Source: an uncultured Spirochaetales bacterium
GTDB taxonomy: Bacteria > Spirochaetota > Spirochaetia > JAFGDJ01
DNA length: 64,000 nucleotides
Reading direction: 5' to 3'
Assembly (NCBI GenBank): GCA_964410865.1
Contig: CAYPIQ010000009.1
Span: forward strand, 9,585 to 73,584
Shown: positions 2,154 through 22,740 of the stretch, one piece after another
How positions within the stretch are numbered: position 1 is the stretch's first letter
Layout of the letters: each line of letters begins with the position of its first letter
Position numbers and translations under genes: made by a program
Notes under the pieces: model-generated
Seen by the model: the letters and a program-made list of their open reading frames with translations, nothing else
Database searches by the model: none
Told to the model about the DNA's origin: nothing

Positions 2154-3533
2154 TTAATACACACTGCTCTCCCCACTTCGGAGGAAACGTCCGGTTCCGC
2201 GATCTCCCAGGAAGTTATCGCCGACTACAATGATCTTTCCCCTAGAGATGGTCATTACAGGAGCTCCGAAATACCGGAAACCATCGTAGGGTGTATACCC
2301 CGCCATGGTCTTAACTGTTGCGGCCGAAAGCGTTCCCTCTTTATCGGGAGAGAAAACGACAATATCTGCATCGGTTCCAGGTTGGAGGCTTCCCTTCTCC
2401 GGGTACAGGCCGAAGACTTTCGCGGGATTGCGGGAAAAAACCGCGGACAGTCGTTCAATATCGAAACCGCTCCCGCCGGTACCCAGGGAGTAGAGCAGGA
2501 CGGCCGCTTCACCGCTGCCGGGGACACCGGCTGGAATAAAGCGGCAGTCGCCGGTCCTCTTCTTCTGCTCCGGGGTATAGGAGCAGTGATCGGTAGCCAC
2601 GATGTCTATCTCTCCGCGGGAGAGGGCTTCGATGAGTATTCGGTTGTCCCTTTCGGTTCGCAGGGGAGGTGTCATGAGATACAGCGGCCCGTCCGGTCCG
2701 CGAAGATGATCCCCGGTAAGGAAGAGGTAATGGGGAGCCGTCTCGGCGACAACCCGCACACCCCCCTTTCTCAGTTTGCGCACAACCCGCAGCGCATCCT
2801 CCGAAGAAACGTGGACGAAATAAACCGGCATACCGTGTTCACCCGCGGCTTCTCCCGCCTTCATGAAAGCCGATGCCTCGGCCCTCGGGGGCCTGAGGAC
2901 CGGATGCATCTCCGGACCGAGCCCTTTCGGTGGCATGTCACGGCTGATCGTCTCGATAAGTTCGTCGTCCTCGGCATGGATGGTGACCAGAAGACGTTTA
3001 TCCCTGCAGAGGGGAAAGAGGTCCTTCCAAGCTGAAGGGTCCAGGTAGACCCCGAACTGCCGGTAGGTGGTGAACAGTTTCAACGCCGTAACACCGAGCC
3101 TTTTCAGTTCGTCGAGTTCTCGAGGTATATCCGGATGCATCCGGTACAGCCCCTGGTGAAGGGCGAAATCGATAACCGAATCCTTTGCTTCCCCTATCCT
3201 CGTCAGGGCCCCTTCGGCAAGGGTCCCTTTCCGTGGATGGTCGGCAAAATCGATAAAGGTGGTAATTCCCCCGAAGGCCGCGGCCACAGAGCCCTCGTAG
3301 AACCCGTCGGCGGTCCTGTCTTCCCCTTCACCCAGGCCGTAATGGGTGTGGGCATCAATAAAACCGGGAAGAACATACATTCCCGATGCGTCGATGATTC
3401 TGGTATCCCCGGGTACGGAATGACCTGGTATCGTTTCTTCCACGGCAAGGATCTTCTCCCCGGCGATGAGAAGATCGGCTTTCCTCGTCCCCTGCGGGGA
3501 TACCAGGGTTCCCCCGGTCAGCAGCAGTCCCAT
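2154..3533 (-). CDS. cyclic amidohydrolase (dihydropyrimidinase / D-hydantoinase family)
   Basis: 459 aa; N-terminal LLTGGTLVSP...ADLLIAGEKI followed by the metal-binding PGFIDAHTH motif of the amidohydrolase superfamily; length and layout match hydantoinase/dihydropyrimidinase. Confidence 0.75.
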   Translation of the reverse strand: MGLLLTGGTLVSPQGTRKADLLIAGEKILAVEETIPGHSVPGDTRIIDASGMYVLPGFIDAHTHYGLGEGEDRTADGFYEGSVAAAFGGITTFIDFADHPRKGTLAEGALTRIGEAKDSVIDFALHQGLYRMHPDIPRELDELKRLGVTALKLFTTYRQFGVYLDPSAWKDLFPLCRDKRLLVTIHAEDDELIETISRDMPPKGLGPEMHPVLRPPRAEASAFMKAGEAAGEHGMPVYFVHVSSEDALRVVRKLRKGGVRVVAETAPHYLFLTGDHLRGPDGPLYLMTPPLRTERDNRILIEALSRGEIDIVATDHCSYTPEQKKRTGDCRFIPAGVPGSGEAAVLLYSLGTGGSGFDIERLSAVFSRNPAKVFGLYPEKGSLQPGTDADIVVFSPDKEGTLSAATVKTMAGYTPYDGFRYFGAPVMTISRGKIIVVGDNFLGDRGTGRFLRSGESSVY

Positions 3534-3534
3534 A

Positions 3535-5553
3535 TCAGCTTTCCCCGGTACGCTTTACTGTTCGTGAGACCATGCCTGCCGCCTTCACGGCGAGGTGTTC
3601 GGCCGTCAGACCAAAATATTTCATGAGCTCCCAGGGGGCGCCGGAGGTGCCGAAGCGATCTTCGACCCCCATCATATCGAACACGAAGTTCCTATTGTTC
3701 TGAACCCCGGAGGTAAGAATCGCCGACGCAATGAGATTGCCGAAGCCCCCCTTCTGGTGCTCCTCCACGGTGAGCAGGGCTCCGGTCTCCCGGGCGGCAT
3801 CGATCACGGCTTCCCGGTCAAGGGGCTTTATGGTCGAAAAGTTCAGCACCCGGCAGGTCAGGCCGAATTCCGCCTGCAGAATCCAGGCCGCCCGCATGGC
3901 CTCCGCAACCACCGGTCCGGTGGCGGCAATGGTGAGGTCTTCTCCGGCTCCCGCGTATTCCGTTGACAGTGTCATGGAAAAGGCATCCATAAAATAAGCC
4001 GTTTCCTTTCCACCGTAACTGATGACCGTCGCGATACCGGGTTTGAAGGGGGAATCGGCCCGGGTGACGATGGGAGTGGCCTCTCTGGCGAACCGTATGT
4101 AACAGGGACCCTGCCTGTTGATGGATGCGCGGGTGATCTTGCGGGTCTCCTCCGCGTCGACGCCGGAGAACATTGTCATGTTCGGGAGCCCTGCTATCTG
4201 GAAGATCTCCTCCAGGGCCTGGTGGGTCGCACCGTCCGGTCCGACCGATACCCCGGCATGGGCGCCGGCTATCTTGACGTTGAAGTTACCGTAACAGACG
4301 GTTGTCCTGAGCTGATCCAGGGCCCTCCCGGCCGCGAAGACCCCGTAGGTCCCGATAAAGGGAACCATGCCGTTCTTGGCGAGACCGGCGGCCAGGGCGG
4401 TAACCGACTGCTCGGCGATTCCCATGCTGAACCAGCGGTCCTTCCGCTCGGGTCTGGACTTAAAGAACTCGTCGATGCAGATCGACCCGGAGATATCCGA
4501 CCCCAGGGCGCAGACCCTCTCATCATCCGTCTCCCGCAGGGCAGCTCCGAAGCCCTTCCTGGTCGGTTCCATGTCCACCCTCATGGCCTCACCGGCATTC
4601 CACCAGTAATTCCGCGAGAATGACGGCTGGGCTCCCTCGACCCCGGCGTCCGTCTCCGCCTGGTATTCCGCGGCATAAGCAATCATATCGTCGGCGGGGA
4701 ATTCGGGCAGGCCTATATCATGGAGGGCTGCATCCAGCTCTTTCCTGTTCGGCGCTTTGCCGTGCCATCCGGCCTGGTGTTCCATGAAGCCGACACCCTT
4801 TCCCTTGACAGTCCCGGCGATGATAACCGCCGGTTTTCCCTGTACGGCAAGGGCTTGTTCATAGGCATCGAGGACCTCCGGAACGGAGTTGCCGTCGCAC
4901 TCGATGACCTCCCATCCGAAGGCGGTATATTTTTCCGCCAGGGGATCGATATTCATCACCGTATCCACCGGTCCGTCGATCTGGAGGCGGTTCTTGTCGA
5001 CAATTCCGACAAGGTTGTCCAAATTGTAGTGGGCCGCGGCCATAACCGCCTCCCAGATCTGCCCCTCCTGCTGCTCGCCGTCGCCCATCAGGCAGAATAC
5101 CCGGTAATCTCCTCCATTTACCCGGGCAGCCAGGGCGTCTCCCACCGCCACGCTCAGGCCCTGTCCCAGGGAGCCGCAGGAGAGCTCGAGCCCGGGCAGC
5201 CTGGACATATCGGGATGCCCCTGGAAAGGGCTGTGGAGTTTCCGGAGAAGAGCTGTCTCCCTGATAGGAAAGTATCCGCAGTAGCCGAGGACGGCGTACC
5301 ACAGGGGGGCCTTGTGCCCGGCGGAAAAGTAGAACCTGTCCCGGCCGGGCCAGGATGGATCATGGGGTTTATGCCTGAGAAACCGGAGAAAGGCGGCAGT
5401 TACCAGCTCCACGGCGGAGAGGGAACCGCCCGAATGGCCCGAACCGGCACAGTGTATGGCCGTCAGGATATATGCCCTGATATCACGGGAGGCCTGCAGG
5501 ATCTCTTCCGGTGAAGCCGTTTTTTCTTCGTTTTTATCGTTGATTATTCCCAT
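3535..5553 (-). CDS. tkt: transketolase (single-polypeptide form)
   Basis: 672 aa; ThDP-binding N-terminal block GSGHSGGSLS...PSWPGRDRFYFSAGH matches the transketolase GHPG...NPxWxxRDRFVLSxGH pattern; pyrimidine-binding and C-terminal domains present. Confidence 0.7.
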   Translation of the reverse strand: MGIINDKNEEKTASPEEILQASRDIRAYILTAIHCAGSGHSGGSLSAVELVTAAFLRFLRHKPHDPSWPGRDRFYFSAGHKAPLWYAVLGYCGYFPIRETALLRKLHSPFQGHPDMSRLPGLELSCGSLGQGLSVAVGDALAARVNGGDYRVFCLMGDGEQQEGQIWEAVMAAAHYNLDNLVGIVDKNRLQIDGPVDTVMNIDPLAEKYTAFGWEVIECDGNSVPEVLDAYEQALAVQGKPAVIIAGTVKGKGVGFMEHQAGWHGKAPNRKELDAALHDIGLPEFPADDMIAYAAEYQAETDAGVEGAQPSFSRNYWWNAGEAMRVDMEPTRKGFGAALRETDDERVCALGSDISGSICIDEFFKSRPERKDRWFSMGIAEQSVTALAAGLAKNGMVPFIGTYGVFAAGRALDQLRTTVCYGNFNVKIAGAHAGVSVGPDGATHQALEEIFQIAGLPNMTMFSGVDAEETRKITRASINRQGPCYIRFAREATPIVTRADSPFKPGIATVISYGGKETAYFMDAFSMTLSTEYAGAGEDLTIAATGPVVAEAMRAAWILQAEFGLTCRVLNFSTIKPLDREAVIDAARETGALLTVEEHQKGGFGNLIASAILTSGVQNNRNFVFDMMGVEDRFGTSGAPWELMKYFGLTAEHLAVKAAGMVSRTVKRTGES

Positions 5554-8350
5554 AGCATCCCCCCTTTTCTTCTTTTTCAGCCAGGGCTTGTTTAATTTTA
5601 GCCGGAGTTACGGGGATCGAATGTATCCAGATCCCCAGGGCATCGTGAACGGCGTGAACCACCGAAGGCGCCCCCATGGAAATCGGCAGCTCGCCCATTC
5701 CCTTGGCACCGTAGGGTCCGTCGCTATGGGTGTTTTCGACGACCATGCAGTGAATCCTGGGTGTTTGACCGATCCTTCGAACGCCCAGTTTTCCATAGGT
5801 GTCGGTGACGACGACCCCCTTTTCTTCCCTGTACTCTTCGGAAAGGGCATAACCGAGTCCCATGACGATTCCGCCCTCCATCTGGCCCTCTACCGCCGCC
5901 CGGTTTATCATCTTTCCGGCATCTGAAGCAATAAAAATATCGTGTACGTCTATGGCACCGGTGGTCCTGTCGACCTCGAGAACCGTCGCCTGGGCGGCGA
6001 AACAGTAGGCCGCATGCAGCCGGGCTTCCGCCGGAGAAGCGTATCCGCCGGGCGGTTCCACCAGGGAAAAATGGGTCTGTGGTGCCGCGTATTGTGCCTC
6101 CGCTCGGAGACGCACGCCTTTTTCATTCAGCCGCGAGACAACCTCATCAAGACCGGCCACAGAACCGTTGCTCCCGGAATCGAAAAAGGAATTATCCCGC
6201 AATATTAGGCTTTTCCCTGTCCCGCCGAATTCCCGGGACACGAACATGTCGAGTTCATTCTTGAGTTTCTTTACCATGGCGAGAACCGCGTTTCCCGTAA
6301 TAAAAGTCTGCCGGGACGCCGTGGTCATTCCAGCCGGTGGGTCCAGTTTCGTATCGGCCGAGTGAACCCGGATTCGCTTGAAGGGCCAGCCGAGATAATC
6401 AGAAGCTATCTGCGCCATGGCTGAATCGGACCCTTGACCCATGTCGACACTTCCGACACGGATCATCAGGGTACCGTCAGCGAGTATTTCTCCGACGGCT
6501 CCCCCCGAATCATCCATACCGATTCCCAGTCCTACGTTTTTATATGAACAGGCGATTCCGATCCCCAGAGCCCGGCCCTCCCCCGGTTCCGGCGGTGTGT
6601 ATCCGGCAAGGGCTTTCCGTACCTCCAGGAGGCATTCCTTGACACCCACGCTGCAGGATATCCTGTCCCCCGTTACCGTGGGTTTTCCCGCCTCCAGTAC
6701 ATTTCTCAAACGTAGTTCGATGGGGTCGATGTGTAAACGGTCGGCTATTTTGTTCATGTTGGTCTCGGCGGCAAAGGTTACCACCGGGTTCCCGAACCCG
6801 CGCATGGCGCAGGCCGGAGCATGGTTCTGGTACACGGCCTTTGCCTCTACCCGGGCAGCCGGAACGGTGTAGGGTCCCGCCGCAAAACTAACGCTCCTCA
6901 AGATTACTGCTTCTTCAACGGATGCGTAGGCGCCGCCTTTGGCGGTGATCTCGGCGGTAACAGCCGTAAGCATACCCGCGGAGGTAACCCCGGTTTTGTA
7001 ACGAAGCCTGGCTGCGTTTCGCTTGCCGCTGGTTCGTATCGATTCCCTCCTGGTAAAGGTATACTTTACCGGTCTTCCGGTGGCGAGGGCGCCCAGGGAC
7101 GCCAGGATCTGAACGGAGATATCCTCCTTTCCGCCGAATCCGCCGCCCATGGGCAGACCGGCGATACGTATCTTTTCCGGGGCCATGGCAAGGACCGGAG
7201 CAATTTCTCCTATATCCATGGGAGGCCCTTGGCTTGCCACGTACACGGTAAGATCTCCGTTTCCGTTCACCGTGGCAACGCATGATTCCGGTTCCAGGTA
7301 GGCGTGTTCGATGTACTGGGTATGGTATTCCTCCTCGACCACCAGATCGGCTTCCCGGAGGCCCTTTTCGGGGTCACCACGGCCCGATTTCATTTCGGCG
7401 ATGATATTTTCCGTCCCCTCGTGAAGGATGACCTTCTTTTCATACAGGGCTTCGTCATACCCGTCCAGCACCGGCAAGTCCCTGTACTCCACGCGAATCT
7501 TCTCAAGGGCATCCTCCGCCTCCCGCTCCGACTCCGCGTACACCGCCGCCAGGGCATCCCCGGAGTACCTGACCCGCCGGTCCGCCAGCACCTGCTGATC
7601 CTTCCGTATGGGTCCAAAGGCGTTCTCCCCCGGTATATCCCCGGCCAGGAGAACCTTTACAACTCCAGGACTCCCTTCCGCCTCCGCCGTATCGATAGAG
7701 AGAATATCCGCGTGGGCACGGCCGCTGCGAAGTACCTTCGTGTAGAGCATGGCATCGAACTGAAGGTCGTCGGCGTACTTTGTTTTTCCCGAGGCTTTGT
7801 CCAGGCTGTCGAGGCGAATCACCGGTTCACCAATTTCCACCGCCCGATCGGGAAAAATCTCGTCCCGGTGTATCCATTCCCTGCCCTGCCGGATAAGGGA
7901 TGCTGCCGTAGTTACCGCCCTAATGATCTTTATATAACCTGTACAGCGGCATATATTCCGCGCCAGGGCTTTCCGTATTTCCTGCTCCGTGGGATCCGGG
8001 TTCGAATCGAGAAGGGCCTTGGTGGACATGATGAATCCGGGTGTACAGAACCCGCACTGTACGGCACCTTCCAAGACGTAGGCATAGATAATCGCATGAA
8101 CACGCCTTTCATCGGACAAGGCCTCAACGGTGGTTACCGAGCAATTGTCCAGGTCTCTCATTTTTTTTCTGCACGAAAGGACAGGCTTACCGTCAAGCAG
8201 GACCGTGCAGGCTCCGCAGTGCCCCTCGTTGCATCCGTTCTTAGCCCCGGTCAGGTGAAGGATGTTTCTCAGGTAAGAGAGAAGGCTCATCTCGCCGTCC
8301 TCAGCGGTATAGGTATAGGGTCTCCCGTTCACATGTAGACGTATATGCAA
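5534..8350 (-). CDS. xanthine dehydrogenase-family molybdopterin oxidoreductase with fused N-terminal 2x[2Fe-2S] domains (XdhD / Desulfovibrio MOP-like; no FAD domain)
   Basis: 938 aa; N-terminal plant-type and second 2Fe-2S cysteine motifs (CNEGHCGACTV, CGFCTPGF, CRCTGY) followed by Ald_Xan_dh_C and molybdopterin-binding domains; size matches E. coli XdhD (956 aa) and D. gigas MOP (907 aa). Confidence 0.8.
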   Translation of the reverse strand: MHIRLHVNGRPYTYTAEDGEMSLLSYLRNILHLTGAKNGCNEGHCGACTVLLDGKPVLSCRKKMRDLDNCSVTTVEALSDERRVHAIIYAYVLEGAVQCGFCTPGFIMSTKALLDSNPDPTEQEIRKALARNICRCTGYIKIIRAVTTAASLIRQGREWIHRDEIFPDRAVEIGEPVIRLDSLDKASGKTKYADDLQFDAMLYTKVLRSGRAHADILSIDTAEAEGSPGVVKVLLAGDIPGENAFGPIRKDQQVLADRRVRYSGDALAAVYAESEREAEDALEKIRVEYRDLPVLDGYDEALYEKKVILHEGTENIIAEMKSGRGDPEKGLREADLVVEEEYHTQYIEHAYLEPESCVATVNGNGDLTVYVASQGPPMDIGEIAPVLAMAPEKIRIAGLPMGGGFGGKEDISVQILASLGALATGRPVKYTFTRRESIRTSGKRNAARLRYKTGVTSAGMLTAVTAEITAKGGAYASVEEAVILRSVSFAAGPYTVPAARVEAKAVYQNHAPACAMRGFGNPVVTFAAETNMNKIADRLHIDPIELRLRNVLEAGKPTVTGDRISCSVGVKECLLEVRKALAGYTPPEPGEGRALGIGIACSYKNVGLGIGMDDSGGAVGEILADGTLMIRVGSVDMGQGSDSAMAQIASDYLGWPFKRIRVHSADTKLDPPAGMTTASRQTFITGNAVLAMVKKLKNELDMFVSREFGGTGKSLILRDNSFFDSGSNGSVAGLDEVVSRLNEKGVRLRAEAQYAAPQTHFSLVEPPGGYASPAEARLHAAYCFAAQATVLEVDRTTGAIDVHDIFIASDAGKMINRAAVEGQMEGGIVMGLGYALSEEYREEKGVVVTDTYGKLGVRRIGQTPRIHCMVVENTHSDGPYGAKGMGELPISMGAPSVVHAVHDALGIWIHSIPVTPAKIKQALAEKEEKGGCYGNNQR

Positions 8351-8371: not shown

Positions 8372-9547
8372 TTATGTTCCGCAGAGCTCGGTTATCAGAT
8401 GCAGGTACATGTCGGCGCAAATCTTAAGCTGTCCCGTATCCAGGTATTCGTTGTCGGTATGGCAGAGGGATGAGTCGCCCGGGCCGTAATGGATCGCGTT
8501 CATTCCCAGGTCGTTGACTAGGAAATCCATCTCGTGGTATCCGTCGGTAAAATAAAATACCGGCTCTTTGCCCGTCGCCCGTCGGTGAGCCTTCACCACC
8601 GCATCGATGGCGCCGCTCTTCATATCGGCAAGGGCGGGAAGAAGGCCACGCTTTTTTACCGGTTCCCAGTTCCAGTCCGGCCGGCCTATTTCCGTTGTAA
8701 CCTCGATACCGGTACGTTTCCCATAGCTCTCACAGACAGAACGCACTTCCTCGAGAATATGATTCTGAGTTTCCCCGGGAATAAGCCGCCGGTCGAACCA
8801 AAGATCACAGGAATCGGGAACGATATTGTAGGCATTACCGCCCTCGATCTTGCCCAGGTTCAACGATCCCCGGACCTCACCGATTCCCTCTATTTCAATA
8901 ACCGGGAACTCTTTCTCCATTAACGCCCGGGCTATATCCATTCCCGCCAGTACGGCGTTCTTTCCCAACCAGGGCCGGCAGCCGTGGGCCGCTTCCCCCT
9001 TCACGCGTACGTGTATCGGTGCCGTGCCCTTGCATCCCACACCTATCCTGCACTCCGAGGGTTCAGTAATAACACCGAAATCCGCATCGACACCCATCTC
9101 GGAAAGGGCCATGCTCCCCCGGTGTTCCGACTCTTCGTCGACGACCCCGACAAAGACCACCGATCGTTTTAGGGGGCTTCCGCGACGTATGAAGCGCTCA
9201 AAGGCATCGACGACCGCGGCTACACCACCCTTCTGGTCTACCGCCCCCCTGCCGTACACCCTTTCATCCTCCACCCGAGAATCAAAAGGCGCAGTCATGC
9301 CGTAGGCTGGGACCGTATCCAGATGGCCGTGAAAGAGAAGGGCCGGCCTTTTCTTCTCTTCACCTTCTATCTCGGCATACACGTTGAACCGGTCCTCCGC
9401 GACCTCGAATAACCTGGTCCTGCAACCCATGTCATTTAATCGCGATTCGAGATACAGGGCCACCTCTTTCTCATTCCCCGTGACACTGGGAATAGAAACC
9501 AGTTTTCTTACCTCATCGAGACAACTCATCTTCGTCTGCGGCCCCAC
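8372..9547 (-). CDS. M20-family metallo-amidohydrolase (ArgE/DapE/YgeY-like)
   Basis: 391 aa; LFHGHLDTVP metal-binding motif and overall M20 peptidase architecture; start may be the internal Met at 9529, which would remove the overlap with the upstream gene. Confidence 0.7.
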   Translation of the reverse strand: MGPQTKMSCLDEVRKLVSIPSVTGNEKEVALYLESRLNDMGCRTRLFEVAEDRFNVYAEIEGEEKKRPALLFHGHLDTVPAYGMTAPFDSRVEDERVYGRGAVDQKGGVAAVVDAFERFIRRGSPLKRSVVFVGVVDEESEHRGSMALSEMGVDADFGVITEPSECRIGVGCKGTAPIHVRVKGEAAHGCRPWLGKNAVLAGMDIARALMEKEFPVIEIEGIGEVRGSLNLGKIEGGNAYNIVPDSCDLWFDRRLIPGETQNHILEEVRSVCESYGKRTGIEVTTEIGRPDWNWEPVKKRGLLPALADMKSGAIDAVVKAHRRATGKEPVFYFTDGYHEMDFLVNDLGMNAIHYGPGDSSLCHTDNEYLDTGQLKICADMYLHLITELCGT

Positions 9548-10503: not shown

Positions 10504-11197
10504 TGTTGTTCCTCCTGTGGAAGTGGTCTTTCAGATATATTTCACGCGTATGTTTCAGGAGCTCGATCATCGCGTCCCTGGCCCCCAGGGGGTCGCGATT
10601 TCTTATCGCATCCAGCACATGCCTGTGCAGTTCGGCCCCCCGCTTCGTGTGTGCTATCTCACCGAGAAACTTCGCGTAGGAAGCCCTCACTGCCGAGGAA
10701 AACTGGACGAGCAGGGGATTCTTGACGCTTTCGGCGAGGGCGATATGAAAATCGAGGTCTTTTCGTGCCACCAGGGCCTTGTCACCGCCGCAGGAATCTT
10801 CCAGCTCCTGGAGGCAGTGCTCCATCCTACTCAAGTCTTCGTCGCCGGCCTTCTTGGCCGCGAGAACCGCCAGGCCGGTATCCAGGACCTCCCTCAGTTC
10901 CATGAGATCCCTTACACTGGTATCCTGATACAGGGAATTGACGATGGTCTTTGACAGGGGAACGGAGGGATTCTCGGTTACATAGGTACCCTGTCCCCGC
11001 CGCACCTCGGCAAACCCCATGGCCTGGAGGACCTGGAGGGCCTCCCGCACGGAAGAGACACCCACATTCAGAATCCTGGCAAGCTCCCGCTGGGACGGAA
11101 GCCTCTGACCCCATGTAAGTTTTCCCGAGGATATATACCCCAGCAGCTTTTCCACCACCGCGTCGGCAACCGTCAGCGTTTCAACTTTGTCTATCAT
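10496..11197 (-). CDS. GntR-family transcriptional regulator (FadR/FCD subfamily)
   Basis: 233 aa; N-terminal winged HTH (LPSQRELARILNVGVSSVREALQVLQAMG) and C-terminal all-helical FCD-type effector domain. Confidence 0.8.
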   Translation of the reverse strand: MIDKVETLTVADAVVEKLLGYISSGKLTWGQRLPSQRELARILNVGVSSVREALQVLQAMGFAEVRRGQGTYVTENPSVPLSKTIVNSLYQDTSVRDLMELREVLDTGLAVLAAKKAGDEDLSRMEHCLQELEDSCGGDKALVARKDLDFHIALAESVKNPLLVQFSSAVRASYAKFLGEIAHTKRGAELHRHVLDAIRNRDPLGARDAMIELLKHTREIYLKDHFHRRNNNE

Positions 11198-11221
11198 TAC
11201 GCACCCATCCTTTATCGATAC

Positions 11222-15857: not shown

Positions 15858-15861
15858 ACGA

Positions 15862-16797
15862 TTATCCTTTCAGGTACGGTTTGCCGTTGGCTGCCGGACT
15901 CACGGCTGTTTTGCCGAACAGGCCTATGAGGGCAATGAGGGTCAGCACATAGGGAAAGGCGAGCATGAGCTCGGGGGGAATGGGAACTCCCGCCGCCTGG
16001 GCCCCGGCCTGGAAGGCGTCGGCAAAACCGAAGAGAAGGCATGCCAGCAACGCCCCACCGGGGCTCCAGCGCCCGAAGATCATGGCCGCCAGGCCGATGA
16101 ATCCACGTCCCGCGGTCATGGCCGAGGAAAACTGGGACTGGTAACAGATGGAGAGGAAAGAACCGCCGAGACCGGCGAGGAGTCCGCTCATGGTGACGGC
16201 GATATAGCGCATCCTGTACACATTGATACCCAGGGTATCGGCGGCCCGGGGATGTTCCCCCACCGAACGTATCCGCAGACCCAACCGTGTCCGGAAAAGA
16301 AGGAAATGAATGACCGGAACGAGGATCAGGGCAATATAGACGACAGGGTTCTGGTGACCGATGATCCTGCCGACCACCGGTATGGAAGATATCAGGGGCA
16401 CATGTATGTCGCCGATAACATCCACCGTGGGAGATATTCCGAAGTGGCCCGGCCAGATGACCGGGATGAGGATATTCGGAAGACCGACCGCCATGATATT
16501 TATGGCCGTCGCGCTGATAATCTGGTTCGCCCCGATGGTGATACTCATAAAGGCGTGCAAGAGCCCCATGAGGCCGCCGGCACAGACTCCCAGTAGCAGT
16601 CCGGCCCAGGGTCCGATAAAATATGAACCGACCACGGCGGTAAATGCGCCCATGAGCATCATGCCTTCCAGCCCTATGTTGATAACCCCGGACCGTTCCG
16701 ACATACACCCTCCAAGAGACGCGAGAATGAGAGGGGTGGCTATGCGAAGAGTCGAGGCGAATACGGCAAGGTTGAACAGTTTAACGAACAGACTCAT
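15862..16797 (-). CDS. ABC transporter permease (BMP/nucleoside-type, second permease)
   Basis: 311 aa polytopic membrane protein with the branched-chain-AA/ribose-type permease fold, adjacent to the BMP substrate-binding protein and ATPase. Confidence 0.8.
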   Translation of the reverse strand: MSLFVKLFNLAVFASTLRIATPLILASLGGCMSERSGVINIGLEGMMLMGAFTAVVGSYFIGPWAGLLLGVCAGGLMGLLHAFMSITIGANQIISATAINIMAVGLPNILIPVIWPGHFGISPTVDVIGDIHVPLISSIPVVGRIIGHQNPVVYIALILVPVIHFLLFRTRLGLRIRSVGEHPRAADTLGINVYRMRYIAVTMSGLLAGLGGSFLSICYQSQFSSAMTAGRGFIGLAAMIFGRWSPGGALLACLLFGFADAFQAGAQAAGVPIPPELMLAFPYVLTLIALIGLFGKTAVSPAANGKPYLKG

Positions 16798-17875
16798 GGC
16801 TCTTCCTCTTTATACGGTCTTTAATGAGTATTCCGATTGGTGTGCTCATGCCCATAAAAAGGACGATAATTCCGGTAATAACCGAAACCATGTCCTTGTT
16901 CACACCGTACAACGCCTGCATCAGAACCGACCCGCTCCGCAGGACTCCGAAAAGGAACGACGAGGCGATAATGCCGATGGGATGGACCATACCCAGGAGG
17001 GCTACCGCTATGGCATCGAATCCGTAGCCCGGAGAGAAGGCCGCAAAGAGCCGGTAATGGACTCCCAGAATTTCCACCGCCCCTGCAAGCCCTCCCAGCG
17101 CACCGCTGATAGAGAGGGTCAGGACAATGTGTTTCTTGATACTTATTCCCGCCGTTTCCGCAGCGTATTTATTCTTACCCACAGCCCTTATCTTGAACCC
17201 GAGGCGTGTACGAAACAGCAGTACCCAGATAACGACGGCGACCGCGACGGCAAAGAAAATTCCCCAGTGTATCCTGGTACCCTGGATTATTCGGACAATT
17301 CTCGCGCTGTCCCGGATGAAGGGGGACGCCGGCATATCGTCCAGGGTATCCTTCATGGGACCTTGCATCGACACCAGGTAGGCGGCTATCTTGAAGGCGA
17401 TGTGATTGAGCATGATGACGCCGATAACCTCGTGTATCCCGAATCTGGCCTTGAGATAACCGGGAATGAAGCCCCAGAAGGCTCCCGCCAGGGCGCCGGC
17501 TGCCAGGCACAGGGCGACGTGGATAATCGGTGACATCTCGGGGAGAATATATCCGAAGAAGGCCGCCGCAATTCCCCCGACGGTTATCTGTCCCTCGAGA
17601 CCGATATTGAACAGCCCGCAGCGATAGGCAATGGCGAAGCCCAGACCGCTCAAAAGAAGGGGAGTCGTGGATACGAGGCTCTCACCGATACACCGCTTGC
17701 TGCCGAAGGCACCCCGGAACAACGCGCCGTAAACCGGAAAGGGATCGTAGCCGGTCAGGAGCAGTATAAAATAAACAACTACCATGGCAAAACACACGGC
17801 CAGAATCGCCTTTACAAAGGAGAACACCGATTCCCTTTCTATAAAAAAACTATACAGGGGATTCCTATTCATCAT
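16781..17875 (-). CDS. ABC transporter permease (BMP/nucleoside-type, first permease)
   Basis: 364 aa polytopic membrane protein, same operon position as NupP/YufP-type permeases. Confidence 0.8.
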   Translation of the reverse strand: MMNRNPLYSFFIERESVFSFVKAILAVCFAMVVVYFILLLTGYDPFPVYGALFRGAFGSKRCIGESLVSTTPLLLSGLGFAIAYRCGLFNIGLEGQITVGGIAAAFFGYILPEMSPIIHVALCLAAGALAGAFWGFIPGYLKARFGIHEVIGVIMLNHIAFKIAAYLVSMQGPMKDTLDDMPASPFIRDSARIVRIIQGTRIHWGIFFAVAVAVVIWVLLFRTRLGFKIRAVGKNKYAAETAGISIKKHIVLTLSISGALGGLAGAVEILGVHYRLFAAFSPGYGFDAIAVALLGMVHPIGIIASSFLFGVLRSGSVLMQALYGVNKDMVSVITGIIVLFMGMSTPIGILIKDRIKRKSHESVR

Positions 17876-19382
17876 GTTTTCCTCCCCCGGCCATCATGAA
17901 ACCGATTTCCGTTTCGGTTGCTTTACCCGCTTCGAATTCAGCAATTATTTTTCCTTCATATATGACAAGGATACGATCACTGAGATTCATGATCTCGCTC
18001 AACTCCAGGGATACCAGAAGCACCGCTTTCATCCGTGACCTGGCATCCATGATCTGCGAGTGAATAAACTCGATGGCGCCGACATCGAGTCCCCGGGTGG
18101 GCTGGGAGGCAATGAGCACTTTCGGATCCCGGGCAAACTCCCGGGCCAGTACGGCTTTCTGCTGGTTGCCCCCGGAGAGGGTCCCCGCATTAACATTTAC
18201 CCCGGGAGTCCTCACATCAAAGGACTCGATGAGCTCGGAAGCCCACTCCCGTGCCTTGTTAAAATCGAGGAACATCCCCCTGGCAAAGGGTTTTTTGTCT
18301 TCGAAACCCAGGAGCATGTTTTCGTACAGGGGAAAATCGAGGATCAGCCCTCGAAGAAGTCTGTCCTCCGGTATGTGAGCCACCCCGGCTTCCAGGAACT
18401 GCTTTGTGTTCTTGTGGAACATGTCCAGGCCGTCGATCTCCAGGGTTCCTTCATCGACTTTTCGAAGGCCCGTCAGAACCTCCACCAGTTCGGTCTGTCC
18501 GTTTCCGTCTACACCGGCTAGGCCTACGATCTCCCCTTGCCGTACTTCGAGGCTGAGGCCGTTTAGAGCCCGCTGTCCGCGCTTGTCCCTGGCCGTAACC
18601 CCTTCCATCCTGAGCATTACCTTCCCCGGTTCCATCTCCGGCCGTTCGGTGGAAAAGAGCACCTCCCGCCCCACCATCATGCGGGCCAGGTCTTTGGTGT
18701 TTGTCGATGCGGTATCAACCACCTCGATGACCCTTCCGTCCCGGAGAACCGTTACCCGGTCCGAGACCTCCATAACCTCTTTAAGCTTGTGAGTTATAAA
18801 AATGATGGTTTTTCCCAGTTTTCTCAGGGATTCCATCACCTTGTACAGCTCCTGGATCTCCTGGGGGGTAAGAATCGCGGTGGGCTCGTCGAATATCATA
18901 ATATCGGCGCCCCGGTAGAGGAGTTTCAGAATCTCAACCCGCTGCTGCATACCCACGGAGATATCACGGACAAAGGCATCGAGATTCATCTCCATCCCGT
19001 ATTTCTTCGATATTTCCGTGAGTTCCCGTTCCGATTTTTCCAGATCGAGGGCGAACCTCTTTACCGATTCGGTTCCCAAGATCAAGTTTTCCAGCACCGT
19101 GAATACCGGGATAAGCATGAAATGTTGGTGAACCATGCCGATACCGTTCTTTATGGCATCGCCTGGACCGGAATATTCAACCCTTTTTCCGCGAATGTAG
19201 ATCTCGCCCGAATCATGACCGTACAACCCGTAGAGTATGTTCATCAGCGTGGATTTACCGGCTCCGTTCTCCCCGAGCAGGCAGTGGATTTCTCCCTCTT
19301 CCACCTCGATCGACACATCGTTGTTGGCAAGAACCCCGGGAAAACTCTTTACGATATGCTCCATGCGAATTATTGCTGCCAT
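17865..19382 (-). CDS. ABC transporter ATP-binding protein with duplicated ATPase domains (nucleoside/sugar type)
   Basis: 505 aa; two Walker A motifs (GENGAGKST and a second P-loop region), LSGGNQQK signature and two-domain layout. Confidence 0.85.
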   Translation of the reverse strand: MAAIIRMEHIVKSFPGVLANNDVSIEVEEGEIHCLLGENGAGKSTLMNILYGLYGHDSGEIYIRGKRVEYSGPGDAIKNGIGMVHQHFMLIPVFTVLENLILGTESVKRFALDLEKSERELTEISKKYGMEMNLDAFVRDISVGMQQRVEILKLLYRGADIMIFDEPTAILTPQEIQELYKVMESLRKLGKTIIFITHKLKEVMEVSDRVTVLRDGRVIEVVDTASTNTKDLARMMVGREVLFSTERPEMEPGKVMLRMEGVTARDKRGQRALNGLSLEVRQGEIVGLAGVDGNGQTELVEVLTGLRKVDEGTLEIDGLDMFHKNTKQFLEAGVAHIPEDRLLRGLILDFPLYENMLLGFEDKKPFARGMFLDFNKAREWASELIESFDVRTPGVNVNAGTLSGGNQQKAVLAREFARDPKVLIASQPTRGLDVGAIEFIHSQIMDARSRMKAVLLVSLELSEIMNLSDRILVIYEGKIIAEFEAGKATETEIGFMMAGGGKHDE

Positions 19383-19436
19383 GGTTGTTCCGTTCAGTCA
19401 AGGTTTGGGCCGGATAAACCGGCCCGTTGTTTCATT

Positions 19437-20459
19437 CTACAGCTGTGGCGGGGTAAACGCGTCCAGTTCTTCGTATGTCGAAGGAGCCTTTATCTCTCCA
19501 CTCAAGATTTTTTCCTTGAGCATTTCCGCGTATTCAATGACGTCATCGGGGATGAGATCACCGGTGGTAGCATAATCAACCGCTCCCTCCTTGATACCGT
19601 AGTAATAATGTTTCCCCTCGAAGGTGCCGTTAACAACCATGCCGCAGGCATTACAGACGGCAATATCCACCCTTTTGATCATGGAAGAGAGAACGTGCTC
19701 GGGGGCAAGGTAGTTTTGATCCCTGTCTATACCGATGACGTATTTGTCCTTTTTCTTGGCGGCATTGATAACCCCCAGGCCGGTCTGTCCGGCGACCTGG
19801 AAAATGACGTCAGCGCCCTGATCGTACTGGGGCACCGCCATTTCCTCTCCCTTGGCGGGATCGGCAAAGGTTCCGGCATAGGATACGAGTATTTCAATAT
19901 CGGGATTCGCAGTCATTGCTCCGGCCCTGTACCCAGCTTCCATCTTGTTGGTGACGGGGGTCGACATACCGCCCACATACCCGATAATTCCGGTCTTGGA
20001 TACCCTGGCGGCAATGGCTCCGACAAGGAATGCTCCTTCATTTTCCATGAAATGGATACTCGCTACATTCGGAAGATCGACCCCCCCGTCCACGATCGCG
20101 AAATTGGAATCGGGGAACATCTCCGCGGCTTCAGCAACCGCGTCCTTGATCATGAACCCGACACCGATAATGAGGGATGCGCCCTGTTCAGCGAGGGTAC
20201 TCAGATTGGGAACATACTGCGCCTGTTCACGGGCCTCGAGCACCTTGCGTTCGATACCGTATTTTTCTTCGGCCATTCCGAGGCCTTCCCATGCCGCGTC
20301 GTTAAACGACTGGTCCCCAAGGCCCGACTGGTTGGTAACCATGGCCATAACCAGCTTTTCTTCCACCTGAGCTTCTTCCTTATCACCGCCTGCCCATACA
20401 TTCACGGCAATGATCATGATAAGAAAAATCATCCCGACAGTTTTACACATCTTTTCCAT
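19437..20459 (-). CDS. BMP-family (basic membrane protein / PnrA / Med-like) periplasmic nucleoside-binding protein
   Basis: 340 aa with N-terminal signal peptide; conserved BMP-family blocks (GLGDQSFND, IGVGF, GYVGG). Confidence 0.8.
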   Translation of the reverse strand: MEKMCKTVGMIFLIMIIAVNVWAGGDKEEAQVEEKLVMAMVTNQSGLGDQSFNDAAWEGLGMAEEKYGIERKVLEAREQAQYVPNLSTLAEQGASLIIGVGFMIKDAVAEAAEMFPDSNFAIVDGGVDLPNVASIHFMENEGAFLVGAIAARVSKTGIIGYVGGMSTPVTNKMEAGYRAGAMTANPDIEILVSYAGTFADPAKGEEMAVPQYDQGADVIFQVAGQTGLGVINAAKKKDKYVIGIDRDQNYLAPEHVLSSMIKRVDIAVCNACGMVVNGTFEGKHYYYGIKEGAVDYATTGDLIPDDVIEYAEMLKEKILSGEIKAPSTYEELDAFTPPQL

Positions 20460-20528: not shown

Positions 20529-21893
20529 CTACGGAAGCGGCCAGCCGTTACGCCGCCAGAGATCCACCGCTTCCTTCTTCGATTCCTCGTAGACGGCCTC
20601 TTCATCGACATTGAGAAATTCCCCGTCTTTCATGAGCAGTTTGCCGTCCACCATAACACCTTCGACATCGGAGCGTTCGCAGGTGCTCACTATGTAGTTT
20701 TCCACGTTTTCTTCAAAGATTGGCACGGCGCTGCGGTCTTTAAGCATGATGAGATCGGCTTTTTTCCCCTCTTCCAGGGAGCCGATCTCCTTTTCCATCA
20801 GCACGGCCTCGGCGCCCCTGTTGGTCGCCATGGCGAGAACCTCTCCGTCCGGCAGCAGTTCGAGGTCTTCGTACTTGATCCTGTGAATCATCTGGCTTGT
20901 CCGCATGATTTCGAACATGGAATGTGTCTGCCCGTCGGTTCCAAAGCCCACACAGACACCCTCCTTAATAAAGGGCATCATGTCGGGCCAGAACCCGAAT
21001 ATGGCGTTGGATTCGGCGTTATGGGCGATCTTGACGTCATGAGCCTTGAAAATAGCCGGATCACGCCAGACATCCATGTAGGAGCAGTGAAAAAGGAGCA
21101 CGTCAGGGCCCAGGAAGCCGATATCCTCCAGGAATCGCGTCGGTCGCTTCCCATGTTTTCTGGTGGAGTCGAAATTGTGCCAGCGGTCGTCGGCCATGTG
21201 CATCATGATCCCACACCCCAGTCTGTCCGCCTCTTTTCTGGCCCGTATCAGCAGTTCCGGGGGACAGGAAAATGTAGTATGGAGTCCGATTCTGGCGCTT
21301 ACGCGTCCTTTTTTAGGATTCACCTTGTTTACCAGGTTGATATTCTCCTGAAACCCAAGCTCCTGATTCTCCGGGCTTATCCTACCGGTGGTTTCAAAGG
21401 AGAGGATACACCGCATGCCCGATTCCTCCGCCGCCTTCAGGACGTGGTCCATAGCTCCTGGAAGGGCGTAGGAGCCCTCGGCCGTGTCGGTCGTCGTCGT
21501 TATACCGCTGCGGAGGTTTCCCAGCATGTTGGCCAGGGACCCGATGTACATCTGCTGCCGGGTAACCCTGTCTTCGAGCATGGGGTACCAGAACCGCTCC
21601 ATCCACGAGATGAAGGAAAAATCGGAGTCGTCGAATCCGGAAAAGGGGATACTCCGTACCACCGCGCTGTAGAGGTGGCTGTGAAGACTGATGAACCCGG
21701 GGGCGATAATCTTACCCGAGGCATCCACGATTTCAGCATCGGAGTATTTTTTCACGTCGATCGAATCCGCGGGACCGATCTTTTTTATCACATTGTCTTC
21801 AATGTAGATGACTCCGTTCCTGAAAATCCTGTTGTCTCCGTCTTTCGTTACGATAAGGCCGTTTACTACAAGTTTCTTATCCATGCTTTCCAC
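20529..21893 (-). CDS. SsnA-like amidohydrolase (second paralog)
   Basis: 454 aa; GFISLHSHLYSA HxH motif, amidohydrolase fold, paralog of the 14430-15857 gene. Confidence 0.7.
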   Translation of the reverse strand: MESMDKKLVVNGLIVTKDGDNRIFRNGVIYIEDNVIKKIGPADSIDVKKYSDAEIVDASGKIIAPGFISLHSHLYSAVVRSIPFSGFDDSDFSFISWMERFWYPMLEDRVTRQQMYIGSLANMLGNLRSGITTTTDTAEGSYALPGAMDHVLKAAEESGMRCILSFETTGRISPENQELGFQENINLVNKVNPKKGRVSARIGLHTTFSCPPELLIRARKEADRLGCGIMMHMADDRWHNFDSTRKHGKRPTRFLEDIGFLGPDVLLFHCSYMDVWRDPAIFKAHDVKIAHNAESNAIFGFWPDMMPFIKEGVCVGFGTDGQTHSMFEIMRTSQMIHRIKYEDLELLPDGEVLAMATNRGAEAVLMEKEIGSLEEGKKADLIMLKDRSAVPIFEENVENYIVSTCERSDVEGVMVDGKLLMKDGEFLNVDEEAVYEESKKEAVDLWRRNGWPLP

Positions 21894-21899
21894 CCCAAC

Positions 21900-22661
21900 T
21901 CAGCGTAATTCTTTAATACCGAGAGCAGCCCCGGCATTCAGAAAACCGAGGTCGGTATTATAGGCGATCAACCTCATACCCCTGTTCTTCCAGTTCTTCA
22001 ATACATCGAGATTCCCGATGTGCATTCCCGTGTGCACATTGTGCCGGTTGCCGGCTTCCAGGACCTTTTGAAAAATATCACACATAAAGTCTCCGACCAG
22101 GTCGTTGGGAACACCGTAGGATACGGCCATATCGTTGGGTCCGAGAACTGCACCGTCTACCCCCTGGACAGACAGAATATTGTCCAGGTCCTCCATGGCC
22201 GCCTTTCGTTCGATCTGGAGAATGACCATATTCTCTTCATTCGCTTCGCGAACGAAGGTGAGGAGATCACTCCCCCTGTAGTCGTTATGTCCCTTGTTTA
22301 TGGAGCAACCCCGTTCTCCCATTGGCGGGTACTTCGAATATGCCACGGCCTTTTCCGCCTGTTCCCGGGTCTCTATCCTCGGGACCATAAAACCCTGTGC
22401 CCCGGCATCCAGGCACCGGGCGATAAAATGATATTGAAGATCCGGGACCCTCACAAAGGGGGTAATACCGGCTCCCCTGGAAACCTTGATCATATCGGCC
22501 ACCGTTTCCATGGTGTGAGCGCCATGTTCCATGTCGATGAACACAAAATCGTAACCGGCATGCGCCAGCAACATAGGAACGGCGGGAGACCGCAGTTCCT
22601 GTATCATGGTGCCGAGAACAACCTTCCCGTCATTCAATTTTTCACGAACCTTATTTTTCAA
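21900..22661 (-). CDS. HpcH/HpaI-family aldolase (2-keto-3-deoxy-acid aldolase / citrate-lyase-beta-like)
   Basis: Catalytic region FIDMEHG and the overall HpcH-family pattern. Start placed at a TTG (22661) preceded by an AGGAGGTG RBS at a 5-nt spacing; the track ORF (to 22787) would run through the promoter/operator. Confidence 0.7.
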   Translation of the reverse strand: MKNKVREKLNDGKVVLGTMIQELRSPAVPMLLAHAGYDFVFIDMEHGAHTMETVADMIKVSRGAGITPFVRVPDLQYHFIARCLDAGAQGFMVPRIETREQAEKAVAYSKYPPMGERGCSINKGHNDYRGSDLLTFVREANEENMVILQIERKAAMEDLDNILSVQGVDGAVLGPNDMAVSYGVPNDLVGDFMCDIFQKVLEAGNRHNVHTGMHIGNLDVLKNWKNRGMRLIAYNTDLGFLNAGAALGIKELR

Positions 22662-22689
22662 GGTAGCACCTCCTAGTATGTGCAGTTCG

Positions 22690-22740
22690 GGTGTTCTGAA
22701 CACCAGAACACCATTATACACAGATTCCTCAAAAATGCAA
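22690..22740 (-). promoter_or_regulatory. sigma-70-type promoter (TTGCAT-N16-TATAAT) with overlapping palindromic operator (GGTGTTCTG-N5-CAGAACACC, also containing the perfect palindrome GGTGTTC-N1-GAACACC)
   Basis: Read directly on the minus strand: -35 at 22735-22740, perfect -10 at 22713-22718, inverted repeat at 22690-22712 covering the predicted +1; about 30 nt upstream of the aldolase RBS at the head of the 16-gene minus-strand block. Confidence 0.45.

Follow-up and report, generated by a model that had tools for sequence, protein, structure and literature searches.

Two studies published in 2025 solved the anaerobic, reductive pathway of uric-acid degradation in gut bacteria (PMC12507026; bioRxiv 10.1101/2025.04.24.650524). 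Two questions stayed open after this work: which electron donor serves the FAD-less enzymes of the clostridial type, and how much the pathway varies beyond the gut. Both are raised by a stretch of 64,000 nucleotides (64 kb; hereafter the window) of contig CAYPIQ010000009.1, from an uncultured Spirochaetales bacterium. Here, 16 minus-strand genes between positions 2154 and 22787 combine relatives of the uric-acid enzymes with an aldehyde:ferredoxin oxidoreductase (AOR) and a polyferredoxin. What might such an operon degrade, and from where would the electrons come? We consider it about an even chance (roughly 0.5) that the operon encodes a self-contained, ferredoxin-level route for the anaerobic breakdown of an oxopurine of the xanthine or urate type, built from enzymes paralogous to the described ones and with a different redox and downstream design. 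What would be new with respect to the described pathway is the electron-input module and the exit of the three-carbon unit, and what would be shared is the hydroxylase, the ring reductase and the serial amidohydrolases.

A tightly packed operon and its redox core

Open reading frame (ORF) listing together with Pfam and NCBIfam scans placed 16 consecutive co-directional genes on the minus strand (Table 1). They are transcribed in the order g16, g15, g14 to g11, g10, g9, g8, g7, g6, g5, g4, g3, g2, g1, with intergenic gaps of no more than 69 bp and overlaps at 8 junctions, and form one tightly packed operon. The original prediction, an earlier annotation of this DNA, had claimed 16 genes on one strand; we confirm the number, the end that it gave (22740) being about 50 nt short of 22787. 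All the families that it named were found: the Bmp importer, the hydantoinase, the M20 enzyme, the 938-aa Mo protein, the D-2-hydroxyacid dehydrogenase, the transketolase, the HpcH aldolase and the GntR/FCD regulator. Our count of 16 takes in the AOR, the polyferredoxin and a DHO_dh-Fer4 reductase, which had been assigned to a separate finding and which turn out to be the conserved core of the operon. The view of the locus as a single co-transcribed catabolic cluster for an N-heterocycle is supported.

Table 1. Genes of the operon in order of transcription, with their positions in the window and supporting matches
Gene	Product	Positions	Strand	Matches
g16	HpcH/HpaI-family class II pyruvate aldolase, first operon gene; exact start codon uncertain	21900..22787	-	Pfam HpcH_HpaI 110.9 bits
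g15	SsnA-like amidohydrolase (chlorohydrolase/deaminase superfamily), proposed ring-opening hydrolase	20529..21893	-	best NCBIfam matches are SsnA models
g14-g11	Bmp/PnrA-family ABC importer	15862..20459	-	Pfam Bmp 265.7, ABC_tran 175.9, BPD_transp_2 172.5 and 147.3 bits
	importer: binding protein (g14)	19437-20459	-
	importer: double ATPase	17865-19382	-
	importer: permease	16781-17875	-
	importer: permease	15862-16797	-
g10	chlorohydrolase/deaminase-type amidohydrolase	14430..15857	-	Amidohydro_1 189.4 bits
g9	tungsten-type aldehyde:ferredoxin oxidoreductase (AOR)	12671..14488	-	AFOR_N 246.7, AFOR_C 321.9 bits, full-length
g8	130-aa polyferredoxin, proposed electron wire	12286..12678	-	16 Cys in four [4Fe-4S] motifs
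g7	356-aa DHO_dh (FMN) + 2x[4Fe-4S] reductase, UacX-like, no FAD/NAD(P)H module	11222..12292	-	DHO_dh 79.7 bits, Fer4
g6	GntR/FCD transcriptional regulator, embedded in operon	10496..11197	-	Pfam GntR 60.2, FCD 75.6 bits
g5	D-isomer-specific 2-hydroxyacid dehydrogenase	9526..10503	-	2-Hacid_dh_C 190 bits
g4	M20 (ArgE/DapE-type) amidohydrolase, proposed ureido/carbamoyl hydrolase	8372..9547	-	Peptidase_M20 115 bits
g3	938-aa fused 2x[2Fe-2S] + molybdopterin hydroxylase without FAD domain	5534..8350	-	Fer2, Fer2_2, Ald_Xan_dh_C, MoCoBD_1, MoCoBD_2
g2	transketolase	3535..5553	-	NF004559 584.8 bits (cut-off 488)
g1	dihydropyrimidinase/hydantoinase (HyuA-like cyclic amidohydrolase), last operon gene	2154..3533	-	TIGR02033 365.4 bits (cut-off 393.25)

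Related loci were collected by a genome scan with g7 as query, using one genome per species, and by searching metagenomes with a g7-family alignment, followed by a synteny script. Five loci from metagenome-assembled genomes (MAGs) of Spirochaetota carry equal genes in equal order, with 56-87% amino-acid identity, and more distant relatives of g7 (48-60% identity) also lie inside versions of the cluster. The Atribacterota locus L008 has the whole set; the transketolase gene here comes right after g7, and the cluster closes with an additional aldehyde dehydrogenase. In the Anaerolineae locus L010 the order is amidohydrolase, M20, Bmp-ABC importer, amidohydrolase, AOR, polyferredoxin, g7 homologue and Mo enzyme, followed by two short-chain dehydrogenases/reductases (SDRs), an RraA-like aldolase in place of the HpcH enzyme, an aldehyde dehydrogenase and a carbamate kinase. 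Two Chloroflexota loci (L013 and L014) run amidohydrolase, AOR, polyferredoxin, Mo enzyme, g7 homologue and then a homologue of g1, the dihydropyrimidinase, so that the Mo-enzyme gene sits within the module of AOR, polyferredoxin and reductase. Where the upstream sequence exceeds 2 kb, 18 of 19 loci have the AOR gene next to the g7 homologue, and the polyferredoxin is adjacent too wherever the upstream sequence extends far enough. In all phyla the gene directly before AOR is the amidohydrolase corresponding to g10, and the two are separated or overlap by 22 nt at the most. Altogether the conserved set is found in three phyla and on more than 20 contigs. Since the gene order matches among the Spirochaetota MAGs and recurs at family level in Atribacterota, in Anaerolineae/Chloroflexota and on many metagenome contigs, the arrangement of the operon is far beyond chance.

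The core begins with g9, whose likely true start is Met15 at 14446, 3' of a GGAGGAGG ribosome-binding site, and which has a CxxCxxxC cluster motif at residue 299. Its nearest structures are the P. furiosus AOR (1aor, 390 bits) and AorB of Aromatoleum (8c0z, 363 bits), and these matches mark g9 as a canonical AOR. With the benzoyl-CoA reductase BamB the score is 169 bits, and a BamB-like dearomatising role of g9 was rejected on this score as against that of the true AOR. The next gene, g8, is the 130-aa gene found on an identical Logan contig (L007); the 172-aa version returned by the ORF tool begins too early. Its product is about 30% identical to E. coli YgfS and to the N-terminus of YgfT. 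Between the AOR stop and the start of g8 the overlap is 8 nt, and between the stop of g8 and the start of g7 it is 7 nt: g9, g8 and g7 are translationally coupled.

This layout resembles AorABC of Aromatoleum aromaticum (8c0z), where the genes of a canonical AOR, of a small subunit carrying four [4Fe-4S] clusters and of a flavoprotein likewise stand in this order. It differs in the third gene, which here encodes a DHO_dh/PreA-like FMN protein with 2x[4Fe-4S] and not a protein of the FAD- and NAD-binding AorC type; Pfam and NCBIfam scans returned no Pyr_redox or FAD domain anywhere in the operon, and thus no NAD(P)-linked third subunit like AorC. The three-gene layout suggests a complex that hands aldehyde-derived electrons to a flavin. 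Given a third gene of the DHO_dh/PreA-like kind, the electron sink would be the C=C bond of a heterocycle rather than NAD+.

Relation to the described purine and pyrimidine pathways

In the described pathway urate is converted to 2,8-dioxopurine by XdhD/DOPDH, and the ring is reduced by YgfK or, in C. difficile, by the PydA homologue UacX. SsnA then gives ureidomethylhydantoin, HyuA 2,3-diureidopropionate, YgeW or UacY albizziin, YgeY diaminopropionate and finally YgeX pyruvate (PMC12507026; bioRxiv 10.1101/2025.04.24.650524). The physiological electron donor of the FAD-less DOPDH was called 'unknown' in one study (bioRxiv 10.1101/2025.04.24.650524), and ferredoxin was presumed in the other (PMC12507026). 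With NAD(P)H as the sole reductant, reduction of the ring is thermodynamically unfavourable, and the urate pathway needs an external reductant such as formate, the published variants being NADH-, ferredoxin- or F420-dependent (PMC12507026). Neither study mentions AOR, transketolase or an aldehyde (PMC12507026; bioRxiv 10.1101/2025.04.24.650524), and full-text searches brought up no account of a purine or uric-acid cluster linked to AOR.

Five families of this pathway are each represented by one protein in the window, with identities of 26-34% to the E. coli proteins and with all curated models for them scoring under their cut-offs. The closest known analogue is the reductive uric-acid pathway of the E. 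coli ygeW-xdhD cluster and of clostridia, with which the operon shares a Mo hydroxylase, a dihydropyrimidine dehydrogenase (DPD)-like FMN/Fe-S reductase and hydrolases of the SsnA, hydantoinase and M20 types in one cluster. In the clostridial variant of C. difficile and C. sporogenes (FAD-less XdhAC, UacX, UacY) the Mo enzyme and the reductase have no FAD or NAD(P)H modules, as is the case for g3 and g7. The differences lie in what the operon adds, namely AOR, polyferredoxin, transketolase, HpcH aldolase, 2-hydroxyacid dehydrogenase, GntR regulator and Bmp importer, and in the predicted product, an aldehyde instead of diaminopropionate and pyruvate. The parallel that had been drawn to the E. 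coli ygeW-ygfT neighbourhood stands at the level of families only, the window proteins not being orthologues of XdhD, SsnA, HyuA or YgeY.

With E. coli queries, tblastn returned no homologue of YgeW, YgeX, YqeA, YgfK (IPR017701), YgfM, YqeB or YqeC in the window. None of the 30 related loci has YgeX, YgeW or a UacY-type gene, and YqeB and YqeC, the selenium-cofactor markers, had no match at E<1e-5 in the window or the related loci. When all seven E. coli proteins were sought in the loci, the one match was a YqeA-like carbamate kinase in L010 (42% identity). A PALP gene of the same locus was considered as a candidate YgeX and rejected as threonine-synthase-like. The suggestion that YgfK has been replaced by a different redox module is borne out, and the same applies to YgfM. 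Conversion to short-chain fatty acids through diaminopropionate and pyruvate is not borne out: YgeW/UacY, YqeA and YgeX are all missing from the window.

A direct comparison is offered by a 161-kb marine metagenome contig (L035), where positions 8888-20012 hold a canonical uricolytic core of the UacX type and a Bmp-type ABC importer, and no AOR. The core consists of a Mo enzyme, an amidohydrolase and two DHO_dh paralogues, of which one (422 aa) carries Fe-S domains and the other (304 aa) does not. The amidohydrolase and the Mo enzyme pass the family cut-offs, with SsnA scores of 539 and 506 bits and 924 bits against 830 for TIGR03311, and the window proteins are 28-36% identical to those of L035. 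Because the L035 cluster passes the cut-offs and yet shares so little identity with the window, the window cluster is a separate system, paralogous to the described cluster rather than a diverged version of it. As L035 has one, Bmp importers accompany the described pathway too. Overall, the operon looks like an undescribed relative of the anaerobic uric-acid pathway, in line with the earlier suggestion of an uncharacterised pathway variant. The published survey was centred on SsnA and most likely excluded it, as g15 falls under the SsnA family threshold.

The Mo enzyme g3 has as its best NCBIfam match the selenium-dependent xanthine dehydrogenase (XDH) model TIGR03311 (691.8 bits, cut-off 830), and reaches 302 bits with the XdhD-type model TIGR03313 (cut-off 1101.9). 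It is 26-27% identical to E. coli XdhD, 28% to XdhA and 36% to the true TIGR03311 enzyme of L035. By architecture, its best PDB match is the FAD-less MOP of D. gigas. The pocket is nonetheless of the XDH type: Gln767, Glu802, Arg880, Phe914 and Glu1261 of bovine XDH correspond to Gln374, Glu409, Arg485, Phe519 and Glu887 of g3. These residues are invariant in the g3 family over three phyla and identical in the TIGR03311 enzyme of L035. Since they are kept, a purine-like substrate of g3 is favoured, and the matching residues make a function like that of the TIGR03311 member possible. A MOP-type aldehyde oxidoreductase was considered and rejected as the main reading, because the residue at the position of XDH Glu802 is Phe in MOP but Glu in g3, which also keeps the Arg and Glu of XDH.

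The start of the reductase g7 was set by an identical 356-aa database protein (P0001) and an identical Logan contig, and lies 22 codons downstream of the start of the 378-aa ORF. Its architecture, PF01180 followed by 2x[4Fe-4S] without a FAD domain, is that of UacX, and it shares motifs with the UacX-like protein of L035. No FAD or NAD(P) domain was detected in g3 or g7 by the Pfam and NCBIfam scans. The PreA model gives about 150 bits (149.6; cut-off 335). Identity is 29% (147 bits) to the UacX-like protein of L035 and 26% (103 bits) to E. coli PreA, and this closer relation to the reductase of a canonical cluster with SsnA and selenium-dependent XDH argues for purine-type chemistry of g7. 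The catalytic Cys loop of PreA ('NFSCP') is deleted in the entire g7 family, and is also missing in the L035 proteins. The reductive pyrimidine pathway (PydA/PreAT, PydB, PydC) is comparable in that FMN/Fe-S reduction of a ring C=C bond is followed by dihydropyrimidinase opening and carbamoyl removal, and a ferredoxin-dependent enzyme of this kind is known in PydAc of Clostridium chromiireducens (PMC7332683). The operon differs in having no PreT (no homologue appeared in the Pfam and NCBIfam scans of the operon), no PreA Cys loop and no beta-alanine aminotransferase, and in adding a Mo hydroxylase and two amidohydrolases.

Among the hydrolases, g15 scores under the cut-off with both SsnA models (NF005540 291.8, cut-off 444; TIGR03314 275.4, cut-off 455.5), SsnA (IPR017700), the marker of the described pathway, being still its top family, and it is 29% identical to E. 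coli SsnA and 28% to the true SsnA of L035. The top NCBIfam matches of g10, all under cut-off, are N-ethylammeline chlorohydrolase (324 bits), 5'-deoxyadenosine deaminase (267) and 8-oxoguanine deaminase (266), with SsnA at rank 11 (190 bits); its nearest structure is 4f0r (197 bits), and it matches PF07969 yet resembles the chlorohydrolase/deaminase type and not D-aminoacylase. Of the two SsnA-like amidohydrolases that had been reported, only g15 can therefore keep the name, g10 being a generic enzyme of the chlorohydrolase/deaminase type. The M20 enzyme g4 misses the cut-offs of the ArgE/DapE model (207.4; 217.6) and of the YgeY model NF009555 (180.4; 321). It is 27% identical to E. coli YgeY, and its nearest structures are DapE and ArgE. 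The HyuA-type model TIGR02033 (IPR011778) is narrowly missed by g1, which is 34% identical to E. coli HyuA over its full length.

The importer has the complete Bmp/PnrA architecture, with a Bmp-fold binding protein, two BPD_transp_2 permeases and a tandem ATPase. The structures nearest to g14 bind nucleosides: 7x0r (231 bits) and the purine-nucleoside receptor TmpC/PnrA of T. pallidum (2fqw, 185 bits). Besides nucleosides, BMP proteins also bind free purines and other ligands. The name 'nucleoside importer' is thus justified at family level by the architecture and the nearest structures, and no further. The embedded regulator g6, kept in the Spirochaetota and Atribacterota loci, has its best NCBIfam matches among the organic-acid sensors LldR, NanR, PdhR and GlcC, all under cut-off.

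Proposed route, electron flow and competing explanations

How could these enzymes work together? In the oxopurine route that we propose, either the base or its nucleoside would enter through the Bmp ABC system, the FAD-less Mo hydroxylase g3 would adjust the oxo pattern of the purine, and the UacX-like g7 would reduce a ring C=C bond and so dearomatise it. The hydrolases g15, g1, g10 and g4 would then open both rings, two ureido groups leaving as CO2 and NH3. Four hydrolases would fit such a substrate, because a bicyclic bis-ureide needs four C-N cleavages (PMC12507026). Reduction of the C4=C5 bond of a 6-oxopurine by a DPD-like enzyme would give a C4 aminal, and its full hydrolysis would yield OHC-CH(X)-COOH, that is amino- or hydroxymalonate semialdehyde, a tautomer of hydroxypyruvate. 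The three-carbon unit would probably leave as an aldehyde of the 3-oxopropanoate type, tartronate or malonate semialdehyde, and not as 2,3-diaminopropionate and pyruvate. We favour this exit because YgeX and YgeW are missing from the 30 loci and because the variable accessory genes act on such aldehydes or their tautomers. On paper, both overall conversions would be redox-neutral: xanthine + 6 H2O -> tartronate semialdehyde + 2 CO2 + 4 NH3, and urate + 6 H2O -> glycolate + 3 CO2 + 4 NH3. A four-electron route to malonate semialdehyde would be equally compatible with the genes for SDRs and for (methyl)malonate-semialdehyde dehydrogenase (MMSDH) that other phyla carry.

In L013, the gene directly after the dihydropyrimidinase encodes a 2-hydroxy-3-oxopropionate (tartronate semialdehyde) reductase, with 364.6 bits against an equivalog cut-off of 340.75. 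L010 carries a CoA-acylating MMSDH (497 bits, cut-off 448.5), and L008 a half-length MMSDH homologue that has the same model as its best match and, at 248.7 bits, stays under the full-length cut-off. In the window the aldolase g16 scores under cut-off with HpaI (134 bits) and GarL (125 and 120 bits); its nearest structures are 3qz6, GarL (4tv5/1dxe) and YfaU, and it is kept at the operon start in L001, L004, L023 and L008. The dehydrogenase g5, also under cut-off, scores 267 bits as phosphoglycerate dehydrogenase (PGDH), 225 as glyoxylate reductase and 211 as GhrB. Its nearest structures are McyI, PGDH and glyoxylate reductase, and it lies between the PGDH and the glyoxylate/hydroxypyruvate-reductase types.

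The transketolase g2 is the only gene of the operon above a curated equivalog cut-off. It keeps the ThDP and catalytic residues, with equivalents of E. coli TktA His26, His66, His100, Asp155, Asn185, His261, Glu411, His461, Asp469, His473 and Arg520, and probably also those of Arg358 and Ser385, which fall in a poorly aligned stretch. A loss of phosphate-binding residues, as for non-phosphorylated substrates, was considered and rejected, none being lost as far as the alignment allows; since they are kept, this check does not discriminate between substrate types. The original prediction had read transketolase and aldolase as a sign that the ribose moiety is metabolised. This reading finds no support: a nucleosidase, a nucleoside phosphorylase, a pentomutase and a kinase are all missing from the operon. 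Ribose also fits less well than a three-carbon aldehyde derived from the ring, because other phyla fill the same slots with tartronate-semialdehyde reductase, malonate-semialdehyde dehydrogenase and RraA-like aldolase.

These genes also recall the glyoxylate/glucarate branch (GarL, GlxR/GarR, GhrB), given a GarL-like g16, a g5 similar to GhrB and glyoxylate reductase, and the Chloroflexota variant with its above-threshold tartronate-semialdehyde reductase. Jointly they match the enzymes through which tartronate semialdehyde and hydroxypyruvate are processed downstream of aerobic purine and allantoin catabolism. The two tautomers, tartronate semialdehyde and hydroxypyruvate, are in equilibrium; hydroxypyruvate is the classical irreversible ketol donor of transketolase, and GarL makes pyruvate and tartronate semialdehyde. 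Unlike this branch, the operon has no glyoxylate carboligase, hydroxypyruvate isomerase or glycerate kinase, its g16 and g5 score under the equivalog cut-offs, and its context is strictly anaerobic and ferredoxin-linked.

Another question regards the path of the electrons. Oxidation of aldehydes by AOR has an E0' of about -580 mV, and g8 would wire this reaction of g9 to ring reduction by g7, possibly also to g3. The AOR would oxidise the aldehyde released by the pathway, its electrons returning to g7. Alternatively, g5 would reduce the aldehyde (to glycerate), or the transketolase and the GarL-like aldolase would feed it into central metabolism. The substrate, the direction of electron flow, the complex of AOR, polyferredoxin and reductase, and the identity of the three-carbon product are inferred. 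The boldest form of the proposal is a closed electron loop, in which AOR oxidises the pathway's own C3 aldehyde (tartronate or malonate semialdehyde), or glycolaldehyde made by transketolase from hydroxypyruvate, and the polyferredoxin passes the very low-potential electrons to the UacX-like enzyme and possibly to the Mo enzyme. These electrons would drive the dearomatisation, otherwise unfavourable, of the same class of substrate molecules. Overall, the process would be redox-neutral and independent of NAD(P)H, with xanthine or urate turned into CO2, NH3 and a C2 or C3 acid. We regard this loop as doubtful, though worth stating, since it would identify the missing type of physiological donor for FAD-less purine-ring reductases.

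Several points weigh against the oxopurine reading as a whole. Its substrate assignment rests on distant homology and context, all curated purine-pathway models being under threshold. The accessory signal is mixed: tartronate-semialdehyde reductase and a GarL-like aldolase stand against MMSDH and SDR genes, which would point to malonate semialdehyde, the classical end product of pyrimidine catabolism. The transketolase, with its phospho-sugar residues, could simply belong to pentose-phosphate metabolism, and YgeX could be encoded elsewhere in these genomes. Two systems may overlap, considering the true YgeY in L003 and the YqeA-like kinase in L010. One g7-family locus has no AOR nearby, namely L025 (1-9839), which lies on a fragmented contig. 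Finally, the g7 family, with more than 100 clusters at 90% identity, comes from MAG or metagenome sources only, and no cultured host was found.

Could the operon instead encode the canonical 2,8-dioxopurine pathway in a divergent form? YgeX would then be encoded elsewhere, AOR and polyferredoxin would be only the low-potential donor of four electrons, and transketolase, aldolase and 2-hydroxyacid dehydrogenase would process the ribose of a nucleoside or supply the donor aldehyde. Such a form would agree with the five shared enzyme families, with the external reductant that the urate pathway needs (PMC12507026), with a canonical-looking transketolase, and with the Bmp importer, which the L035 cluster has as well and whose g14 is nearest to nucleoside-binding BMP proteins. 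We nevertheless hold it to be unlikely. YgeX, YgeW and UacY-type genes are missing not from one locus but from all 30, the operon offers no nucleosidase, phosphorylase, mutase or kinase for a ribose branch, and other phyla carry semialdehyde-specific enzymes at the same operon positions. Moreover, L003 has both a g4 homologue and a true YgeY, implying different roles for the two, and the window proteins are as distant from the canonical homologues of the clostridial type as from those of E. coli.

A different N-heterocycle is likewise improbable as the substrate, although parts of the operon would suit one. The Mo enzyme and the reductase would then jointly prepare for hydrolysis a pyrimidine (of the uracil, cytosine or orotate type, leading to malonate semialdehyde), a pterin or lumazine, a modified or deoxy-nucleoside, or 8-oxoguanine. 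Dihydropyrimidinase, M20 enzyme and a reductase similar to DPD and dihydroorotate dehydrogenase do make up the reductive pyrimidine trio, the MMSDH and SDR genes of L008 and L010 are typical malonate-semialdehyde enzymes, g10 is closest to deaminases of 5'-deoxyadenosine, methylthioadenosine and 8-oxoguanine, and no curated purine model passed. A monocyclic pyrimidine, however, needs only two hydrolases and no Mo hydroxylase. There is no beta-alanine aminotransferase in the operon, the pocket of g3 is XDH-like, the nearest relatives of g7, g15 and g3 stand in purine clusters, and g7 does not have the catalytic loop of PreA and DPD. As for the idea that genes without a common function (transport, Mo enzyme, AOR, sugar enzymes) came together by chance, several members do come from broad families with many possible roles and an IS110 transposase fragment lies just upstream, but the tight, often overlapping junctions and a set conserved in order over three phyla and more than 20 contigs make it barely conceivable; synteny effectively refutes it.

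If the oxopurine reading is true, AOR would have a new physiological role, the energetics of purine dearomatisation would have a new answer, and abundant uncultured anaerobes would have a route to recycle the nitrogen and carbon of nucleic acids. The operon, conserved in uncultured anaerobes of sediment and subsurface among the Spirochaetota, Atribacterota and Chloroflexota, would be a separate version of purine breakdown. It gives candidates that can be cloned, and the electron source for purine dearomatisation thereby becomes directly testable.

Variant loci and flanking genes

Some of the related loci depart from the common layout. In L014 AOR and polyferredoxin are separated by two inserted genes (2258-3699), one of them for an AbiEii toxin-type nucleotidyltransferase; in every other locus the core is contiguous. 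In L025 the frames of g7 and of the Mo enzyme are split over several ORFs, which suggests a decaying copy or a low-quality assembly. On a 2.4-Mb ENA contig (L012, 13138-20711) the cluster ends after the M20 gene and is followed by PIN/antitoxin pairs, a 1143-aa NACHT/WD40 protein and a neighbour with a CHAT domain; these genes may form a defence island that took the place of the distal operon genes. In a Spirochaetaceae MAG (L003, 15863-18212) the cluster has neither 2-hydroxyacid dehydrogenase nor transketolase. It is directly followed by the true YgeY (429 bits, cut-off 321), present besides the g4 homologue, and then by a protein of 389 aa, in which a C-terminal 2x[4Fe-4S] domain follows 290 unassigned N-terminal residues. 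This Fe-S protein was considered as a second UacX and rejected, the match being confined to the ferredoxin domain.

The flanks of the operon in the window are unrelated to it: an IS110 transposase fragment and a giant ORF upstream, RadC and a weak MoaE-like ORF downstream. The other genes of the window concern efflux, FeoB, PtsP and CTP synthase. Directly upstream, at 23145-23797 on the minus strand, two short ORFs with the C-terminal domain of IS110/IS116/IS902 transposases represent a fragmented insertion sequence, where the G+C content is 48% compared with 55-60% in the operon. Just downstream, on the same strand, a 125-aa ORF (1199-1576, minus) has a weak match to MoaE/molybdopterin synthase (Pfam 27 bits, NCBIfam 26 bits) and, if real, could relate to the cofactor supply of the Mo and W enzymes. 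The giant ORF (25204-34095, minus) encodes 2963 aa, with an N-terminal hydrophobic segment, a composition rich in Ala, Glu and Leu, no internal repeats and no Pfam match, and is followed by a lipoprotein-like ORF of 365 aa (24096-25193, minus), also without a Pfam match. Beyond it, on the opposite strand, 35132-46440 holds TolC-like and HlyD-like genes, two Big_5 genes and two RND (AcrB-type) genes.

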